Of a stretch of DNA of 29,160 nt, positions 13,514-22,089 are shown piece after piece. Below the pieces are notes generated by a model. The model saw nothing but the letters and a program-made list of their open reading frames with translations, was not told the origin of the DNA and did not search any database. Position 1 is the first letter of the stretch; every line of letters starts with the position of its first letter. The DNA is taken from contig CAZHCY010000001.1 in NCBI GenBank assembly GCA_964531185.1, positions 1,757 through 30,916 on the forward strand. Reading direction: 5' to 3'. The DNA comes from an uncultured Desulfovibrionales bacterium. GTDB lineage: Bacteria > Desulfobacterota > Desulfovibrionia > Desulfovibrionales > Desulfonatronovibrionaceae. A program made the translations under genes and the position numbers.

Positions 13514-14707
13514 ATGGAAAAAATTGAACTTAGAAAAGTGAGCAAAATTTTTGGGGAGCATCCCAAAAAAGCTCTGGCCATGCTCCAGGAGGGCAGGAAA
13601 AAGGATGAGATCCAGGCCAAAACAGGCTGTGTAGTGGGAGTGGATCAGGCCTCCTTTGATGTCAAGGAGGGCGAAATAGTGGTGGTCATGGGTCTTTCGG
13701 GCAGTGGGAAATCAACTCTTGTCCGGTGCATCAACCGGCTGTTTGAACCCACCTCTGGAGAGATAATCGTTGACGGCCAGGATGTCAGAAGACTGGACAA
13801 GGACCAGCTGCGGGAGTTCCGGAGAGAGAAGTTTGGGATGGTTTTTCAGAATTTTGCTTTGTTTCCGCATCGAACAGTGCTCAACAATGTGGAGTTCGGC
13901 CTGGAAATTCAGCACGTGGATCCTGAAAAACGCAGGGAAAAGTCAGAAAAGGCACTGGAGCTGGTCGGCCTTAAGGGATGGGGCGAGAAGTTTCCTTCCG
14001 AGCTTTCAGGCGGAATGCAGCAGCGCGTGGGTCTGGCCAGGGCTCTGGCTCTGGATCCGGATATTCTGCTCATGGACGAGGCCTTCAGCGCCCTGGATCC
14101 GCTCATCAGAAGAGACATGCAGGATGAGCTGATAACCTTGCAGCAGACCATGCGCAAAACCATTGTTTTCATCAGTCATGATCTGGATGAAGCCCTGAAG
14201 CTGGGGGACAGGATTGTACTGATGAAAGACGGGGCTGTAGTCCAGATAGGTACCCCTGAGGACATTCTGACCAAGCCGTCCAATGAATATGTGGCCAAAT
14301 TTGTTGAAGAGGTGGATATTACCAAGGTTCTCACAGCGGAATCCGTTATGAAGAAATCCCAGGATGTGGCCTATCTCAGCAGTGACGGACCACGGACAGC
14401 CATGCGCAAAATGAAGAAAAACGCCATTGCTTCCCTGTTTGTCGTGGACAAGGAAAACAGGGTGGAAGGGCTGGTTTTTGCGGATGATGTGGCCCGTTTA
14501 ATTGAAAAAGGAGAGAAAGATTTAACCACAGTGCTTAAAAGGGATATTCAGAGAGTGACTCCGGAAACCCCTGCTTCTGAGTTGTTCCCCATAATGCAGG
14601 ATATTTCCTATCCTGTGGCAGTGGTTGATGAAAATAAAAAGCTCAAGGGGATAATCGTCAAGGGACTTCTGATGGCGGCTATTGCTGAGCGTGGAGGAGA
14701 ATTATGA
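13514..14707 (+). CDS. proV: Glycine betaine/proline ABC transporter ATP-binding subunit with tandem CBS domains
   Basis: VMGLSGSGKSTL, MVFQNFALFPHRTV, LSGGMQQRVGLARAL, MDEAFSALDPLIR..MQDEL, two C-terminal CBS repeats. Confidence 0.95.
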   Translation: MEKIELRKVSKIFGEHPKKALAMLQEGRKKDEIQAKTGCVVGVDQASFDVKEGEIVVVMGLSGSGKSTLVRCINRLFEPTSGEIIVDGQDVRRLDKDQLREFRREKFGMVFQNFALFPHRTVLNNVEFGLEIQHVDPEKRREKSEKALELVGLKGWGEKFPSELSGGMQQRVGLARALALDPDILLMDEAFSALDPLIRRDMQDELITLQQTMRKTIVFISHDLDEALKLGDRIVLMKDGAVVQIGTPEDILTKPSNEYVAKFVEEVDITKVLTAESVMKKSQDVAYLSSDGPRTAMRKMKKNAIASLFVVDKENRVEGLVFADDVARLIEKGEKDLTTVLKRDIQRVTPETPASELFPIMQDISYPVAVVDENKKLKGIIVKGLLMAAIAERGGEL

Positions 14708-15537
14708 GTTTTGAACTGCCAAGACTGCCCCTGGGAGATGGTATAGAAGCTGTCCTTGATTTTCTGGTCAGGAACCTGGCCTTTGCCACCAAGGCTTTTT
14801 CCACAGTGGCGGATCAGGGAATACGTCTCATGGAAGCAGCTCTGATGTTTTTGCATCCAGTGGTGCTGATTATTGTGTTCACTATGCTGGTGTTTTATCT
14901 GACCAGGCAGAAAGGGGTGACGGTGTTTACTTTTCTGGGGCTGGGTCTGATATGGAACCTGGGGCTGTGGTCGGCCACAGTGAGCACCATATCCCTGGTC
15001 CTGGTGGCCACCCTCATTGCCATTGCCATAGGCATTCCCATAGGCATATTCTGCGCATTGAACAGTTACGCCTATAAGATTGTCCGCCCTGTTCTTGATT
15101 TTATGCAGACCCTCCCTGCTTTTGTATATCTTATTCCAGCCATACCCTTTTTTGGGCTGGGAAGGGTGGCAGCGATTTTTGCCACAGTCATTTTTTCCAT
15201 GCCCCCGGCCATCAGGTTCACCACTTTGGGTATCAAGCAGGTGCCCAGAGAACTTGTGGAATGCGCAGACGCTTTTGGAGCAGACAAGTGGCAGAAACTG
15301 TTCAAGATCCAGCTTCCCTTGGCCAAAACCACCATAATGGGCGGAGTCAATCAGACCATCATGCTTGCTTTGTCCATGGTGGTTATTGCGGCCATGATCG
15401 GGGCCAGAGGCCTTGGAGGCGAAGTCTGGAGAGCTATCCAGAGGCTTCAGCCTGGAGCCGGTTTTGAAGCCGGCATAGGTATTGTTATTGTGGCTATTGT
15501 TCTGGACAGGGTTTTACAGAAGCTGGCCAGACAATAG
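14704..15537 (+). CDS. proW: Glycine betaine/proline ABC transporter permease
   Basis: PVLDFMQTLPAFVYLIP, IRFTTLGIKQV, QLPLAKTTIMGGVNQTIMLALSMVVIAAMIGARGLG; ATGA overlap with proV. Confidence 0.95.
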   Translation: MSFELPRLPLGDGIEAVLDFLVRNLAFATKAFSTVADQGIRLMEAALMFLHPVVLIIVFTMLVFYLTRQKGVTVFTFLGLGLIWNLGLWSATVSTISLVLVATLIAIAIGIPIGIFCALNSYAYKIVRPVLDFMQTLPAFVYLIPAIPFFGLGRVAAIFATVIFSMPPAIRFTTLGIKQVPRELVECADAFGADKWQKLFKIQLPLAKTTIMGGVNQTIMLALSMVVIAAMIGARGLGGEVWRAIQRLQPGAGFEAGIGIVIVAIVLDRVLQKLARQ

Positions 15538-15570
15538 AGTTGATAAAAACCAAACCGAAGGAGGCTTACT

Positions 15571-16416
15571 ATGAAGAAAGGAATGCTAGTATTGTTTATG
15601 CTGGCCATGCTGGTGGGTTTTGGTCCGGTCAAGTCCGATGCCAAGGAAACAGTGACCCTGACCTATGTGGAATGGGACTGTGCCGTGGCCAGCACCTATG
15701 TTGCCCAGGCCGTGCTTGAGGACAAACTTGGCTATAACGTGGATGTTCTTCCGGTAAGTGGTGCTGCAATGTGGCAGGCCCTGGCCACAGGCGATGCCGA
15801 TGCCATGGTCACTGCCTGGTTGCCGGTCACCCATGCCCAGTATCTTGAGCAGACCAAAGATGATGTTGAAGAAGTAAATGTGGTCGCCAAAGGAGCCAAA
15901 ATCGGGCTGGTAGTGCCTGATTATGTCTCCATTTCTTCCATTGAAGAACTGAATGCCAATGCAGACAAGTTTGACGGCAAGATTGTCGGTATTGATCCCG
16001 GCGCAGGCATCATGGGACTGACTGAAGAGGCTCTGGATGAATACGGGCTGAGCAATTTTGAGCTGGTGGAAGGAAGCGGAGCCACCATGGCCGCTGCACT
16101 CCAGGACGCCATCCGCAATGAAGAATGGGTTGTGGTCACAGGCTGGTCTCCTCACTGGAAGTTCGGCCGCTGGGGCCTCAAATACCTTGAAGACCCCAAA
16201 GGCGTTTATGGTGAAGAAGAATACATTGCCACCATTGTCCGTGATGATCTGAAAACTGACATGCCTGAAATATATGAATTCTTTGAAAAGTTTTCATGGA
16301 ACCAGGACTATATGTCTGAGGTCATGGTCTGGAATCAGGAAGGATCTGATCCGGCTGACAGCGCCAGGCGCTTTATCAAGGAAAACCCTGATCTGGTTCA
16401 GGAATGGCTGCCCTAA
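15571..16416 (+). CDS. proX: Glycine betaine ABC transporter substrate-binding protein (OpuAC-type)
   Basis: Signal peptide; YVEWD, AWLPVTH, IVGIDPGAGIM, VVTGWSPHWKF, LKYLEDPKG aromatic-box motifs. Confidence 0.93.
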   Translation: MKKGMLVLFMLAMLVGFGPVKSDAKETVTLTYVEWDCAVASTYVAQAVLEDKLGYNVDVLPVSGAAMWQALATGDADAMVTAWLPVTHAQYLEQTKDDVEEVNVVAKGAKIGLVVPDYVSISSIEELNANADKFDGKIVGIDPGAGIMGLTEEALDEYGLSNFELVEGSGATMAAALQDAIRNEEWVVVTGWSPHWKFGRWGLKYLEDPKGVYGEEEYIATIVRDDLKTDMPEIYEFFEKFSWNQDYMSEVMVWNQEGSDPADSARRFIKENPDLVQEWLP

Positions 16417-16679: not shown

Positions 16680-19600
16680 TCAACCAAGTTTTTTTAATTG
16701 GCCAATATTTTGCTTCAGTTCGGACCAGACCGGCAAGTGTTCATGACATGAGGCCAGGACGAATTCTGCGGTGGCGTGAATTTTCAGCCAGCGGGGCCGA
16801 ACCGGCAGGGTGTCTTCACTGAGATATTTATCCAGGGTCTGGGTGCGCAGGTAGCCGTCCTTTTCCATATAGACATTCCATATCCTGGACTTTTTGGCCA
16901 GATCAGCCTTGGCATTTCCGGTGGTCTGCGCCCAGCACTCCACAGCCAGGTTCATGACACGCACTGCCAGGCGCCGTTTGTCAGAATTTTTTTCCTTTAT
17001 GGACAAGCCATCTGCAAAGCGCTCAATCAAGGCGCGAGCGGTTTTAAGATCTTCAGCAAGAGATTCTGGCGTATGGATCCGGTCGTGGTATCCGGCGGTC
17101 AGGGCGTCTTCCAGATCCTGAAATATCCTGCGGTGGGCGTTGAATTCCTCAAGCATATCAACAAGAGCCGCAAAGTCCGGGCCAATGTCTTGCTCATTTT
17201 TTTCATTATTCAGTGGACAAAAGATCATCACGAACAGGGTTTCCTCCTCCATTTCCAGGCAGGTGACCCGAACATGGCAGGTACAGTGTTGACCGGAAGC
17301 CTTTAGAAGGCTCTGATGCGCAAAGTTCCCTGTTTTCTTTCCGCTTGGTCCGGTATTGCTTAGAAATGACAATAAATCTCCGGATATTTTGCCTTGAGGA
17401 TTCTGTTGATCCGGTAAAAGCCCGGCCAGAGGGCGGCCAAGCAGGCTGTGGACTGTTTGTCCCGACAGAGCCTGGAAGGCCTTGTTGCAGAAAGTGATTT
17501 CGCGACTGAGGTTTACAGCCAGTATGGCTTCATCAAGGGAGTTAAGCATGCCCGAGAGCCGGTGCTGCATAAGCCATAAATCCTGCTCGGTTTCGCGGCG
17601 AAGGACCAGTTCCTGCTTCAGGCGCATGTTTTCGGTAAGCACTGCATAAGCCTGTTTGAGTTTGAGCAGGGTGCGGACCCTGGCCAGGAGTTCTTCCCGG
17701 GAAAAGGGTTTGGTCAGATAGTCGTTGGCTCCGGCTGAAAAACCGGCCACAATATCTTCGACCCGGTTTTTGACTGTAAGCATGATTATCGGCAGAGACT
17801 GTGCCGAGTGCTTTTGCCGCAGTATCCTGCAGACTTCATATCCGCTGGTGCCGGGCATCATGATGTCCAGGATGACCAGGTCCGGACAATCTCCGTCCTG
17901 GATCAGATCCAGGGCATGGCTTCCGTTTCGGGCTGTTTTGAAGCTGATTCCGGCCAGCCGCAGGCAGGAGCCGATCACATGCAGGTTCACAGGCTCGTCA
18001 TCCACAATCAATGCCTGGTATATCCTGCCCCGGGCGCAGCCCGGATCGGCCGAAACATGTTCAGGTTCAAGCGGCAGGACCATGTTGAATTTTTCAGGGA
18101 GAGGTCCTGCTTGTTTTGGTGGAACATCCCCCTGCACGGCTACGCTGCTTGCCGGCAGGGTGAAAGAGAAAACGCTCCCCCGGCCGGGCTGTGAATCCAC
18201 ATGGATGCTGCCGCCGTGCATCTCTACCAGACGTTTTGTGATGGCCAGGCCCAGGCCGGTGCCTCCTGTGGACCTGGTATGCGCTGAAGCAAGTTGTTCG
18301 TGGGAGTTGAAAATTCGTTTCCGGAACTCAGAGGGAATACCGATACCAGTGTCTGCAACGGATACCCGGGTGAAATCGCCTGAATTCCGGGCTGAAACCG
18401 TGATGGCTCCGGATTCTGTGTACTTGATGGCATTGCCCACCAGGTTGAACAGGATCTGTTCCAGCCTTTCCGGATCTGCTTCAACTGCAGGGAAATCGGG
18501 TTCAATGGCATTGATAAGTTTCAGGCCTTTATCCATTGCCATGGCCTGTGAGATGTCCAGGACACCCCGAGCCGTGTCGCAAAGGTTGACCCGGGATTTG
18601 TTTAAAATAATGTCCTGGTGGGTAAGCCGCGAGAAATCCAGGATTTCATCCACTAAGCAGGAAAGTCGTTTTCCGCTGTGCGCAAGCAGTTTCAGGTGGT
18701 TTCCGGCCTCTGCCGACAGCTTGCCTCCTGCCCCGGCTAAAAGCGTCTCTGCGATACTGACGATGCCGGCCAGTGGAGTTTTCAGTTCGTGGGCAGTGTT
18801 GGCCAGAAACTCATCCTTGAGCTTGTTCATGTCCATAAGTTTCAGATTGGCTTTTTCCAGATTGCCGGAGAGTTTTTCAACCCTGGAAAAGGCATCGGCA
18901 AAGGAAGCGGAGATATAAAAGGAGTAGGACAGGATAAAGATGAACACCCCGTAAGGCGCGAAAGATATGGTGCTGGTGATGTTCAGATCAAAAACCATTA
19001 CATCTATTTCAGAGAGAGCCAGGGCCATATATCCGGGAATGAGCATAAGTGCGTTTTTTTCCCGGCGTAGCAGGTCCAGGGCAAAGGCCGCGAAAAGATA
19101 GGCGTAAACGGCCCTGGTGACAAGGAAGTAGAGAAACGGTCCAGGTCCGTAGGCATTGGGCGGGGTGACCAGGATATAGATGATGTAAACCGCTCCAAGG
19201 AACACGACCAGTCGGTTCACGGTTCTGCTGTATTTTTTGGGAAACAGGACATGATAGAATATGACCATCAGGGGAATGGTCAGTCCAAAGGGCAGAAGTG
19301 AAAAATTGATGTACCATTTCCAGGACAGGTCCGGGGCAATGGTGGACATGAGAAAGCCGGAAGACGGGCTGAACAGAGTGACTACGCCCCAGAAAAAACA
19401 GAACAGGCCGAAATACAGGTTTGCGGTTGCGCACCGTCGCCTGGAAAAAAGCACCAGATGATACAGGGCCATGATAAGCAAGGCACCGGCCATAAAGGCC
19501 CCGGAGAAACGGCGGACATCCATCATGCCTTGAATTTGTTCTCCGGTTCCCAGAAAGATACTGGATTTTATCCCGCCCTGGACATTGTGGTGATTGGAAA

Positions 19601-20168
19601 CACTAAGGACGATTTCCAGAGAATCACCATCCACCCCGAAACGGGGCATCAGGATATGGTCTTCAGGCGATTCCTGGGATAGATCTGTACCTGGTTTTCC
19701 GCTGGATGCCACAAGTGTCCGGTTGACGCTTACCTGGCATACAGACAGTATCCCGCTGACCAGCAGGGACAAGGAGGGCTCAGCTAATGAGTCAGGAAGC
19801 CGGACCCGGAGCAGATAAGTCCCGTGGCCATGGGCTGAAAGGGACTCGCCAGCAAAAGTTTTGCCGCGCCATATCCCGGGAACATGGAAAAAATCCTGCT
19901 TTTCCCGGCTGGACAGGACCATGGCAGCAGGATCAAGCAATTCCCCCCAGATGAATTCCCACTCTCCGTCCAGCCTGAACGGTCCTTGGGAAAAATCCCA
20001 TTCTGTAAGATCAAGTACGCCGCCATGAGCCTGGGGCGAATCCATGGAAGGGGCGCAGCCCATGATCCCTGCTAAAATGATAAAAAGGGCAATGAATCGG
20101 GCGTGAACAGGTACGGGACTGTAATGAGCAAAAGTCAGATCCTGGCTTGCAGGCATTTTCTTTGGCAT
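16680..20168 (-). CDS. 7TM-DISM-type hybrid histidine kinase (extracellular beta domain-7TM-HisKA-HATPase-REC-PAS) with C-terminal ChiS-like DNA-binding domain
   Basis: Lipobox-like IMGC; GGVLDLTEWDF..LDGEWEFIW; about 7 TM helices; EFLANTAHELKTPL; NLVGNAIKYT; DTGIGI; GTGLGL; REC with LVILDIMMP and YLTKPF; PAS (LNSLDEAILAVN..FCNKAF); C-terminal IWNVYMEKDGYLRTQTLDKYL..LPVRPRW. Confidence 0.85.
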   Translation of the reverse strand: MPKKMPASQDLTFAHYSPVPVHARFIALFIILAGIMGCAPSMDSPQAHGGVLDLTEWDFSQGPFRLDGEWEFIWGELLDPAAMVLSSREKQDFFHVPGIWRGKTFAGESLSAHGHGTYLLRVRLPDSLAEPSLSLLVSGILSVCQVSVNRTLVASSGKPGTDLSQESPEDHILMPRFGVDGDSLEIVLSVSNHHNVQGGIKSSIFLGTGEQIQGMMDVRRFSGAFMAGALLIMALYHLVLFSRRRCATANLYFGLFCFFWGVVTLFSPSSGFLMSTIAPDLSWKWYINFSLLPFGLTIPLMVIFYHVLFPKKYSRTVNRLVVFLGAVYIIYILVTPPNAYGPGPFLYFLVTRAVYAYLFAAFALDLLRREKNALMLIPGYMALALSEIDVMVFDLNITSTISFAPYGVFIFILSYSFYISASFADAFSRVEKLSGNLEKANLKLMDMNKLKDEFLANTAHELKTPLAGIVSIAETLLAGAGGKLSAEAGNHLKLLAHSGKRLSCLVDEILDFSRLTHQDIILNKSRVNLCDTARGVLDISQAMAMDKGLKLINAIEPDFPAVEADPERLEQILFNLVGNAIKYTESGAITVSARNSGDFTRVSVADTGIGIPSEFRKRIFNSHEQLASAHTRSTGGTGLGLAITKRLVEMHGGSIHVDSQPGRGSVFSFTLPASSVAVQGDVPPKQAGPLPEKFNMVLPLEPEHVSADPGCARGRIYQALIVDDEPVNLHVIGSCLRLAGISFKTARNGSHALDLIQDGDCPDLVILDIMMPGTSGYEVCRILRQKHSAQSLPIIMLTVKNRVEDIVAGFSAGANDYLTKPFSREELLARVRTLLKLKQAYAVLTENMRLKQELVLRRETEQDLWLMQHRLSGMLNSLDEAILAVNLSREITFCNKAFQALSGQTVHSLLGRPLAGLLPDQQNPQGKISGDLLSFLSNTGPSGKKTGNFAHQSLLKASGQHCTCHVRVTCLEMEEETLFVMIFCPLNNEKNEQDIGPDFAALVDMLEEFNAHRRIFQDLEDALTAGYHDRIHTPESLAEDLKTARALIERFADGLSIKEKNSDKRRLAVRVMNLAVECWAQTTGNAKADLAKKSRIWNVYMEKDGYLRTQTLDKYLSEDTLPVRPRWLKIHATAEFVLASCHEHLPVWSELKQNIGQLKKLG

Positions 20169-20358
20169 GAGCGTGATCTTTCACTGAAATGTTTCCTCCT
20201 CATTTTCCAATAGAAACCAGCAGCTGATATGGACATCCTGAGGAAACGGATAATGATGGAAAGATCTTTATATGGTTTTGGCCAGAGAAGAACAAGCTTT
20301 CACTCATTAGAAACCAGACCATTTTTTTGCCCCGGAATGGTTCACGTCCATGGATATT

Positions 20359-22089
20359 TCAGTCCCTGAATTTCAATGTAACGGTACATTCTCCGTTTCT
20401 GGTCTCAACCCTCACATCATCGGCAAGATGATCAACCAGAAATCCTGCCATGGCTTGAGCCCCTTTGACTTCATTGAACACCTGATGAGGATCCGGCCGA
20501 GTCTCCGGAATTATCAGCGGGCGTCCCATGTAAACCACAACTATCCGGCAAAGATATTCATCAAAAACCGCTCTAAATTCCAGCTCTTTGCTGAACGAGT
20601 CCATTAATTTGTAAGCCTGAATGGCATCCAGAAGTTCATATGTAGCATGGTTGAGGCGACGGATAACCTCGACCCTGGCTCCCCATTGATGCCCGAGATG
20701 CCAGAGTATTTCATTTATTTTCTGAGGCCACTTGTTATCCATGTCAATTTTTCTGGTTACTGATTTGTGAATCTTCAGGCGAAAAAGCGTGTTCAGTCCT
20801 ATGGCTACCACCAGGGTGGCCGCCACAGTGGTAGATAGAGGCGAAAATATTATGTTTTCATCGCTGTCACGTGCTATGTACAGCAACTCATGACCCATGC
20901 CGGCTATGAGAGAAAGGCCTATTGTGATGCTTTTGCGTGAGTCAAGAAGACGTGAGGTGATTATCTTTATGCCGCCTACAATGATAAAAGAAGCTACAAA
21001 TATCAGTACAGCTCCGATTACAGGCATGGAAAGAGAAATCCAAAATGATGTAAAAGGTGGAAAAAACGCCAGGGCGATAAAAAGCCCTCCAAGAACATAT
21101 GCCACTATACGGCTGGTGACTCCACTGGCCTGTGCAAGGCCGATGGCGCCGCCGCTGGCGGTCTGGGCCACTCCATTGATCAGGGAACCCAGGGCATTGG
21201 TTATCCCTTCGGCCAGAAGGCCCCGTTTGATCCCTTCCATGTCAGGCCTTTTCCATGAGGAGTCATTGGCCCTTTGGGCAACGGTCAGAACGCCAAAGCA
21301 GTTGAATGAAAGAGCTAGTCCCAGAAGAACAAAATGCGGCAGCATTTCCCAATTAAAAGACCAACCGAACCGGGCTATCGGCGGCAATGCCAAGACTGGA
21401 ACCTGTGAGATTTCATTCATAAGCGATTCATTGACAACCCCTTGCCAGACCGCAAAGATCTGCCCCACAAGCAAACCGGCAAAAACCGCAAAAGTTCTGG
21501 CTTTTCCATGGCCCCACACATTTACCTCCACGATGACCGAAAGGGTTAGAAGCCCCGTCAGCAGAGTGCGGGGCTCTCCTTGAAGAGGGGTGTCAAGTGC
21601 CAGAAAAGCCCTCATGCCGATAAGGCCAAGGCCAAGTCCGAGGATTAAAACTATGAGCCCGGCAATTTCGACGGGGAAAAAGGGGCGCAGCCTTATGATA
21701 AGGCGCGAAGCTGCAATCTGAACAAAGGCGGCAATGGCCATCATGCCAAAGGCAAGGTCGAGACCTCCCATATTGACAGCGGCGATGGAGGCTGGAAATG
21801 CAATGGCGGACGTATGCATGGGGCTGAACAATCCGATGCCGATTCCGCCCCGGTTTAAGGCCTGCAGGATAACACCACAGCCGGCAGCCACCATTGTCAG
21901 GGCGACCAGGCCTGCTGCTCCGGCAGCGTCAAGTCCGGCCTGACGGGCAAGAAGCACCGGCAGGGTCATTATGGATGCAAGAAAAGCCAGCTGCTGTAAA
22001 GCAACCATAACGGTCATGCCCCAGGGGGGACGTTCATTAATCCAGTATGTAATTCCGTCAGGCCTGAGAGGCCTCTGGTTTTCACTCAT
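20359..22089 (-). CDS. NCS2 (xanthine/uracil permease) family protein with C-terminal RsbW/HATPase_c_2-like extension
   Basis: YWINERPPW, IGIGLFSP, FFPVEIAGLIV, GLLAEGITNALGSLING, GVTSRIV, PVIGAVL topology; about 135 extra C-terminal residues. Confidence 0.75.
   Translation of the reverse strand: MSENQRPLRPDGITYWINERPPWGMTVMVALQQLAFLASIMTLPVLLARQAGLDAAGAAGLVALTMVAAGCGVILQALNRGGIGIGLFSPMHTSAIAFPASIAAVNMGGLDLAFGMMAIAAFVQIAASRLIIRLRPFFPVEIAGLIVLILGLGLGLIGMRAFLALDTPLQGEPRTLLTGLLTLSVIVEVNVWGHGKARTFAVFAGLLVGQIFAVWQGVVNESLMNEISQVPVLALPPIARFGWSFNWEMLPHFVLLGLALSFNCFGVLTVAQRANDSSWKRPDMEGIKRGLLAEGITNALGSLINGVAQTASGGAIGLAQASGVTSRIVAYVLGGLFIALAFFPPFTSFWISLSMPVIGAVLIFVASFIIVGGIKIITSRLLDSRKSITIGLSLIAGMGHELLYIARDSDENIIFSPLSTTVAATLVVAIGLNTLFRLKIHKSVTRKIDMDNKWPQKINEILWHLGHQWGARVEVIRRLNHATYELLDAIQAYKLMDSFSKELEFRAVFDEYLCRIVVVYMGRPLIIPETRPDPHQVFNEVKGAQAMAGFLVDHLADDVRVETRNGECTVTLKFRD

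Follow-up and report, generated by a model that had tools for sequence, protein, structure and literature searches.

What does a carrier of the NCS2 family do once the residues that would hold a nucleobase have been replaced? The question is raised by a permease gene, P0001, in a stretch of 29,160 nucleotides (the window) from an uncultured Desulfovibrionales bacterium of the family Desulfonatronovibrionaceae (GenBank assembly GCA_964531185.1, contig CAZHCY010000001.1, positions 1,757 to 30,916 of the forward strand). The gene lies next to that of a hybrid histidine kinase, and the original prediction held that its product either carries a non-nucleobase solute or transports nothing and acts as a sensor for that kinase. 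The reading preferred here, to which a probability of slightly less than one half (about 0.47) is given, is that the protein represents a previously unrecognised NCS2-fold carrier whose substrate is bicarbonate or a small oxyanion of another kind, and whose C-terminus bears a pseudokinase tail with a regulatory role.

Membership in the NCS2/NAT superfamily is indicated by profile searches and by the predicted 7+7 fold of 14 transmembrane (TM) helices. The open reading frame encodes 576 residues and has no internal stop; its longer start, at 22089, is favoured over Met28 (22006-22008), with which the ESM Atlas record begins the protein, because residues 8-27 (RPDGIxYW..ERPP) are kept in all homologs. 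Pfam PF00860 (Xan_ur_permease) matches residues 26-399 (E 5e-43; 148 bits, cut-off 27), and the NF037981 NCS2_1 model is also passed (45 bits against 40). AlphaFold (AF2) models the full-length protein with confidence (pLDDT 85), and the best Foldseek match of this model is UraA 8omz (E 1e-14; target TM-score 0.80); UraA, UapA and SVCT1 are found at E 1e-12 to 1e-14, and SLC26A11, SLC26Dg and BicA further down, at E 1e-6 to 1e-8.

Within this family, the most conventional explanation would be an ordinary xanthine or uracil permease with an unusual site, or the decaying relic of one, as implied by public sources, which name homologs xanthine or uracil permease, and by the fact that the curated pbuX model TIGR03173 is the best NCBIfam model for the protein. 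Its 183 bits, however, lie far under the curated cut-off of 414, as do the 148 bits of TIGR00801 (ncs2) under 292 and the 38 bits of the uracil permease model NF007995 under 477. The binding site also argues against this explanation. Residue correspondence was taken from MAFFT alignments with relatives and with the E. coli carriers XanQ, XanP, UacT, UraA, RutG, GhxQ and AdeQ (from the annotated K-12 record NC_000913.3), and was cross-checked by a HMMER alignment to UraA structure 8omz; both routes gave identical replacements, at positions that are essential for nucleobase transport in XanQ and UraA. In TM1, the predicted change from Q-H to Q-Q stands as a replacement, with the correction that Q-H is the form of UraA and XanP, and that XanQ itself reads T-H. 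In TM3, the aromatic base-stacking residue (XanQ F94, UraA F73) is replaced by A95, directly after the motif LFSPMHTS, of which H92 is kept across the core clade. In TM8, where LEAVGD of XanQ corresponds to FNCFGV, alignments with five E. coli carriers place N263 and V267 at E272 and D276, as had been proposed, and the same agreement holds for TM10, where FAQNNG becomes SGGAIG, so that G314 stands for Q324 (UraA E290) and A315 for N325 (UraA N291). The NAT signature, [Q/E/P]-N-x-G-x-x-x-x-T-[R/K/G], therefore reads G314-A315-I-G-L-A-Q-A-S-G in the window protein, and in 12 of 12 clade members it opens with G/P followed by A/G; the TM8 carboxylate and the TM1 His are represented by N/H/M/T and Q/L across the clade. 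A proper alignment with nucleobase carriers thus restores no E or Q-N at the canonical positions. Other positions are kept: XanQ D304 in TM9 is E294, G327 is G317, G333 is G323, S336 is S326 and R385 is K375.

These replacements recur in 12/12 sampled clade members, down to 31% identity, and together with the intact reading frame this conservation of replacement motifs from 31% to 81% identity rules out a pseudogene. Since, in addition, every residue essential in XanQ and UraA is replaced, the stacking Phe included, and a separate, canonical AzgA-type purine permease is encoded on contig C164 of the same genome, a nucleobase permease or its relic is scarcely credible here.

The protein belongs to a coherent set of homologs of about 575 residues and 31-81% identity, found among 5.8 billion proteins in Desulfonatronum, Geobacter, Chromatiaceae, Alphaproteobacteria and Burkholderiales, the homolog of Desulfonatronum parangueonense sharing 78% identity. 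In 11 orthologs (50-76% identity) four motifs are nearly invariant, namely ALQQ[LVI], LF[SA]P[ML]H[TS]S, SFN[CS]xGV and QT[ASG]SGG[AS]xGL[AS], with one TM1 exception in ortholog L040, which reads ALQHL; conservation across the entire 14-TM core equals that of functional carriers. A maximum-likelihood tree (LG+C20) gives the clade of the window protein a support of 100/100 and places it as sister (98/100) to two other clades of ‘long’ NCS2 proteins, with all long clades inside the NAT half of the family and apart from the AzgA-like half. The window genome itself (G000; 2.59 Mb, 417 contigs, 92% complete) encodes three long NCS2 paralogs with RsbW-like tails and differing pocket motifs: the window protein, one on contig C290 (L003:249-1973; LKLTGD / SSSNIG) and one on contig C85 (L030:2240-3970; MEGTGN / FCDNLP). 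About ten such motif ‘flavours’ were encountered on the same scaffold among about 50 loci, a pattern that, judged from the sequences, looks like diversification of substrate specificity. According to the classification paper of the NAT/NCS2 family, COG2233 contains clusters without any member of known function.

The gene neighbourhoods of the orthologs, obtained through pattern scans and whole-genome searches followed by extraction of flanks, provide an indication of a substrate. In the clade of the window protein, the gene of about 234 codons that lies directly upstream of the permease, on the same strand, encodes a beta-carbonic anhydrase: Pfam Pro_CA matches at E about 1e-43, the zinc ligands CxDxR and HxxC are present, and there is no signal peptide. 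At loci L039, L040 and L044/L078, the coordinate of the last base of the carbonic anhydrase gene is that of the first base of the permease gene, and at L076 the two genes overlap by 7 nt. When ortholog loci are grouped into lineages at about 80% identity, an adjoining beta-carbonic anhydrase is found in five of the eight lineages that could be assessed: Geobacter (L039), Trichlorobacter (L040), Chromatiaceae (six loci: L041-L043, L049, L064 and L075), Scalindua (L044/L078) and a metagenome (L076). These genomes hold one to four beta-carbonic anhydrase genes each, and chance adjacency in several phyla is therefore negligible. No carbonic anhydrase was found within three genes at about 35 loci with other binding-site motifs, and the Geobacter ortholog, which is linked to carbonic anhydrase, has exactly the four motifs of the window protein. 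It is also of note that two Chromatiaceae loci (L042:8446-9993 and L075:3438-4990) carry tandem beta-carbonic anhydrases upstream of the permease, the first with a Tat (twin-arginine) signal, and hence periplasmic, and the second without a signal, and hence cytoplasmic.

Translational coupling of the orthologs to a beta-carbonic anhydrase of the cytoplasm makes bicarbonate or a small anion the likeliest substrate of the clade, and the first part of the original prediction, that of a non-nucleobase solute, gains support both from this coupling and from the replacement of the nucleobase-contacting residues by a conserved motif set. The protein would be a secondary carrier that has the NCS2/NAT (UraA) fold but has given up nucleobases. 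Small, polar or uncharged residues have taken the place of the acidic and aromatic ones that bind the base in TM1, TM3, TM8 and TM10, and the TM10 half-helix begins with a glycine-rich cap (S-G-G-A-x-G). In SLC26, SLC4 and BicA carriers, which share this fold, the anion sits between the N-termini of two half-helices. By analogy, the loss of two carboxylates and of the stacking Phe, with the gain of the TM10 cap, fits a switch to a small anion. The cargo, in whichever direction it would be moved, would most likely be bicarbonate or another small oxyanion exchanged with bicarbonate, with carbonic anhydrase interconverting CO2 and bicarbonate on the cytoplasmic side. Many hosts of the clade, including purple sulfur bacteria, anammox bacteria and nitrifiers, are autotrophic.

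Several observations weigh against bicarbonate as the substrate. The adjacency does not extend to all lineages: it is absent in the window, in the metagenome-assembled genome of a Desulfovibrionaceae member (L038, 76% identity), these two being the closest forms, and in Nitrosomonas (L045). A search of the window genome, which is 92% complete, revealed no carbonic anhydrase of the beta or alpha class, and this is the weakest point of the case; the conserved carbonic anhydrase coupling of transporters of dissolved inorganic carbon (DIC) is thus present in the clade, and absent from the window locus and its genome. In addition, the adjacency does not in itself fix the substrate, since it is also compatible with cyanate, a different oxyanion or anion/bicarbonate exchange. 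The wider family, moreover, gathers signalling parts, such as a GAF fusion and STAS or partner-switching modules, which leaves room for a sensing role. Lastly, the window gene sits within a cluster of alpha/beta hydrolase genes, being co-oriented with two FrsA/S9-like members.

This last arrangement, with the lack of a carbonic anhydrase in the genome, evokes a carrier for some other non-nucleobase solute, for instance a product (organic acid, amino acid or small peptide) of the neighbouring secreted hydrolases, in which case the carbonic anhydrase link of the orthologs would be incidental or a matter of pH balance. Permeases of a sister clade, of the SSSNIG/SSTNVG type, do directly adjoin S9 prolyl-oligopeptidase-like or Abhydrolase_1 genes (L019:2398-4545, L020:10849-11829 and L022:10769-11623), and in a relative of the window genome, G013, an esterase gene occupies the slot of the permease. 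The hydrolase-linked relatives, however, have different site motifs (LK..GD / SSSNIG), and hydrolase adjacency is seen at no ortholog locus of the window’s own clade. Since the motifs of the window protein are identical to those of the orthologs coupled to carbonic anhydrase, the same substrate is to be expected, and a carrier for some other solute, such as a hydrolase product, is considered unlikely.

Bicarbonate or another small oxyanion being retained as the preferred substrate, the C-terminal tail must also be accounted for. A STAS-like domain, as in SulP carriers, was the initial expectation, and was ruled out by fold search. The tail of the window protein, scanned alone against Pfam, gave no family and a chance-level match only. 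A profile built from the aligned C-terminal parts of 17 family members, however, found B. subtilis RsbW (6m36) in the PDB over almost its full length (E 1.3e-5), and Pfam HATPase_c_2 matches nine of the 17 tails (best E 6.5e-6), that of the window protein not among them. Folded alone, the tail reaches an AF2 pLDDT of 90; RsbW, SpoIIAB and UsfX rank at the top of its Foldseek matches (E about 1e-6), and VIA-align gives Z scores of 14.7 for UsfX, 13.7 for the RsbW domain of Rv1364c, 13.5 for RsbW and 13.4 for SpoIIAB, against at most 8.5 for the catalytic (CA) domains of histidine kinases. The domain is thus predicted, from model and profile, to have the small anti-sigma-type Bergerat (GHKL) fold. 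In kinases of the RsbW type, the N-box Asn and the G1 Asp are required for Mg-ATP binding. The profile alignment to RsbW places A489 and Y520 at these two positions, Y520 being invariant in the clade, and only G522 and G549 remain; with its ATP-binding residues replaced in this manner, the tail is therefore probably a pseudokinase.

The domain was detected in 1,257 clusters when 1.84 billion representatives were scanned, 266 of them at E 1e-10 or better. In nearly all of the best 149 clusters it ends at the C-terminus or a few residues before it; 53 of these 149 are full-length (at least 540 residues), and 56 shorter ones still show permease helices ahead of the domain. No description of the pairing of an NCS2 permease with a HATPase_c_2/RsbW-type domain was found in the literature. 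Three proteins of an SSSNIG-like branch (L069:9213-10541, L070:3370-4707 and L071:1022-2362; 442-446 residues) lack the tail, which is thus not obligatory for the scaffold. Where present, it most likely forms a cytoplasmic regulatory or dimerising module, comparable to the STAS domain of SulP/SLC26 carriers, and in some relatives it may work by binding a STAS protein.

The signalling parts that surround the wider family bear on such a role. Two Burkholderiales proteins of 839-843 residues (L062:9081-11600 in G166 and L063:9027-11558 in G253), with the TM10 motif xGISGGSVGLA, join an N-terminal GAF domain to the NCS2 core and the RsbW-like tail, in what appears to be a sensor-like, three-part fusion. 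STAS genes are found 19 nt downstream of a long NCS2 permease (L073:10782-11120), about 0.6 kb upstream of, and divergent from, a carbonic anhydrase-permease pair (L076:3265-3669), and within 3-4 kb of the permease in L074 (14821-15159) and in L066. In the latter, a module convergent with the permease (L066:4907-8968) encodes a STAS protein, an NMT1-like binding protein, a Cache-HAMP-SpoIIE phosphatase and a true RsbW kinase. The window genome encodes five small STAS proteins, all away from the permease locus, and no STAS, PP2C or sigma gene was found near the window’s permease.

Such data could be taken to indicate a transceptor, or a pure sensor, in which binding of a ligand by the core would be relayed through the tail either to the hybrid kinase or, in a partner switch anchored to the membrane, to a protein of the STAS or sigma type. 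The tail has the fold of anti-sigma factors, whose binding partners are STAS proteins and sigma factors, and the kinase gene is, as had been stated in the original prediction, immediately downstream, co-oriented with the permease at a distance of 190 nt. The comparison with other genomes points in a different direction. The window’s kinase was found at none of the 15 permease ortholog loci, and among 40 relatives a close homolog occurs in G013 only, at about 70-75% protein identity (BLASTP) and in two pieces at contig ends. The cluster in G013 is made up, in order, of two hydrolases, an unknown 366-aa protein, an Lcl_C protein, a 354-aa Abhydrolase_3 esterase and the kinase. Within a synteny of about 75% DNA identity, window positions 22639-20297 and L079:8252-9743 of G013 form a replaced cassette: homology breaks exactly over the Lcl_C and permease segment of the window, where G013 has an Lcl_C-like gene and the Abhydrolase_3 esterase gene, and it resumes in blastn at 20297, 62 nt past the permease stop. 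No long NCS2 gene was found in the G013 genome, and no remnant of the G013 esterase gene in the window or its genome. The spacers, when scanned, showed no clear promoter or terminator, and base composition revealed no clear island.

Because the resumed homology to G013 starts 62 nt beyond the permease stop, the kinase gene keeps a conserved upstream region of its own, and since the G013 cluster lacks the permease, kinase and upstream region either predate the permease or do without it. The adjacency in the window, which is confined to this one genome, is thus best read from these sequences as a local cassette replacement, and not as a conserved pairing of sensor and kinase. The kinase as a co-sensor, the second part of the original prediction, was rejected on these comparative grounds, although a recent functional recruitment may have taken place. 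A transceptor or pure sensor fits poorly with a 14-TM core conserved as in working carriers, and close coupling to an enzyme for which a small solute is substrate or product suits flux better than sensing; this explanation is judged to be quite improbable. A signalling role, exerted through the RsbW-like tail, may nevertheless exist. In its most far-reaching form, which is a long shot, it would make these proteins NCS2-fold bicarbonate (DIC) transporters that double as membrane-anchored partner-switching modules, the tail binding or releasing a STAS or sigma-type protein according to the loading of the carrier, and thereby reporting inorganic-carbon status to gene expression.

The features of the locus are collected in Table 1. 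Convergent with the kinase gene, window positions 13514-16416 (+) encode a complete ABC importer of the glycine-betaine type, composed of an ATPase with CBS domains, a permease and an OpuAC binding protein.

Table 1. Features of the permease locus; positions refer to the window, and residue numbers to the 576-residue product of P0001.
Feature	Position	Strand	Basis or remark
7TMR-DISM hybrid histidine kinase, 1162 aa (HisKA, HATPase_c, REC, PAS)	16680..20168	(-)	Pfam
Spacer from permease stop to kinase start, 190 nt	20169..20358	(-)	kinase-proximal 129 nt conserved with G013
Permease gene P0001	20359..22089	(-)	open reading frame list and translation; full-length homologs at 31-81% identity; AF2 pLDDT 85
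C-terminal cytoplasmic domain, residues 438-576, predicted RsbW/SpoIIAB-type GHKL fold	20362..20778	(-)	profile, Pfam, Foldseek, VIA-align
Permease core, residues 1-437, predicted 14-TM UraA/UapA/SVCT fold	20779..22089	(-)	Pfam PF00860 and Foldseek
TM10 motif QTASGGAIGLA, glycine-rich cap instead of NAT signature	21133..21165	(-)	alignments
TM8 motif SFNCFGV; XanQ E272 / UraA E241 to N263, D276 / H245 to V267	21289..21309	(-)	alignments
TM3 half-helix motif LFSPMHTS	21808..21831	(-)	alignments
TM1 Q32-Q33, instead of Q/T-H of nucleobase carriers; XanQ H31 / UraA H24 to Q33	21991..21996	(-)	alignments

If the clade does move bicarbonate, it would represent a sixth, independent origin of DIC transport, occurring in purple sulfur bacteria, anammox bacteria, nitrifiers, Geobacter and sulfate reducers. 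A 2024 review of DIC toolkits (PMC10880623) describes SbtA, SulP/BicA, CmpABCD, Chr and DAC/DAB, and no NCS2-type carrier; the window protein belongs to none of these recognised families and matches PF00860 only. The literature also yielded no link between NCS2 permeases and carbonic anhydrase, or bicarbonate or DIC transport. With bicarbonate as the cargo, the widespread annotation of such proteins as xanthine/uracil permeases would need correction, and the clade would clearly exemplify how the UraA fold can change its substrate through removal of the acidic and aromatic residues of the pocket. The RsbW-like pseudokinase tail, in turn, could tie transport to partner-switching regulation.

Among the closest known systems are the NAT/NCS2 symporters of COG2233 (E. 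coli XanQ and UraA, A. nidulans UapA, mammalian SVCT1), with which the window protein shares the 14-TM inverted-repeat fold, PF00860 and 20-24% identity, as well as the acid of TM9, the glycines and Ser of TM10, and the basic K375. It differs from them in lacking the His of TM1, the Phe of TM3, the Glu/Asp of TM8 and the Q/E/P-N with which the signature opens, in carrying an additional RsbW-like domain of 140 residues, in falling below every curated nucleobase-permease cut-off, and in the linkage of its orthologs to carbonic anhydrase instead of genes of purine or pyrimidine metabolism. With the anti-sigma-factor serine kinases RsbW, SpoIIAB and UsfX (HATPase_c_2) it has in common the predicted fold of its last 140 residues, and, for some family members, the presence of STAS genes nearby; its tail, however, is fused to a membrane carrier and lacks the Asn (A489) and Asp (Y520), and neither a sigma factor nor a STAS gene adjoins its own gene. 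The ‘trigger transporters’ (DctA/DcuB with DcuS, UhpC with UhpB, LysP with CadC) resemble the locus in that a permease-like protein is encoded beside a membrane sensor kinase, but their pairing is conserved, whereas that of the window occurs in one genome, and the kinase cluster of a relative is without the permease.

The SulP/SLC26 carriers, such as cyanobacterial BicA, share with the window protein the fold class, a cytoplasmic C-terminal domain drawn from the partner-switching toolkit and a genetic link to beta-carbonic anhydrase, which in SulP proteins extends to fusions with carbonic anhydrase (Felce and Saier 2004, as cited in PMC1635747). Here the differences lie in the family of the core, PF00860 instead of PF00916, in bicarbonate transport, which is putative for the window protein, and in the tail, which is not a STAS domain but an RsbW-like GHKL domain, the class of partner that STAS domains bind. 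The partner-switching carrier proposed above would thus mirror the SulP-STAS design, but with the opposite partner of the RsbW-RsbV pair.

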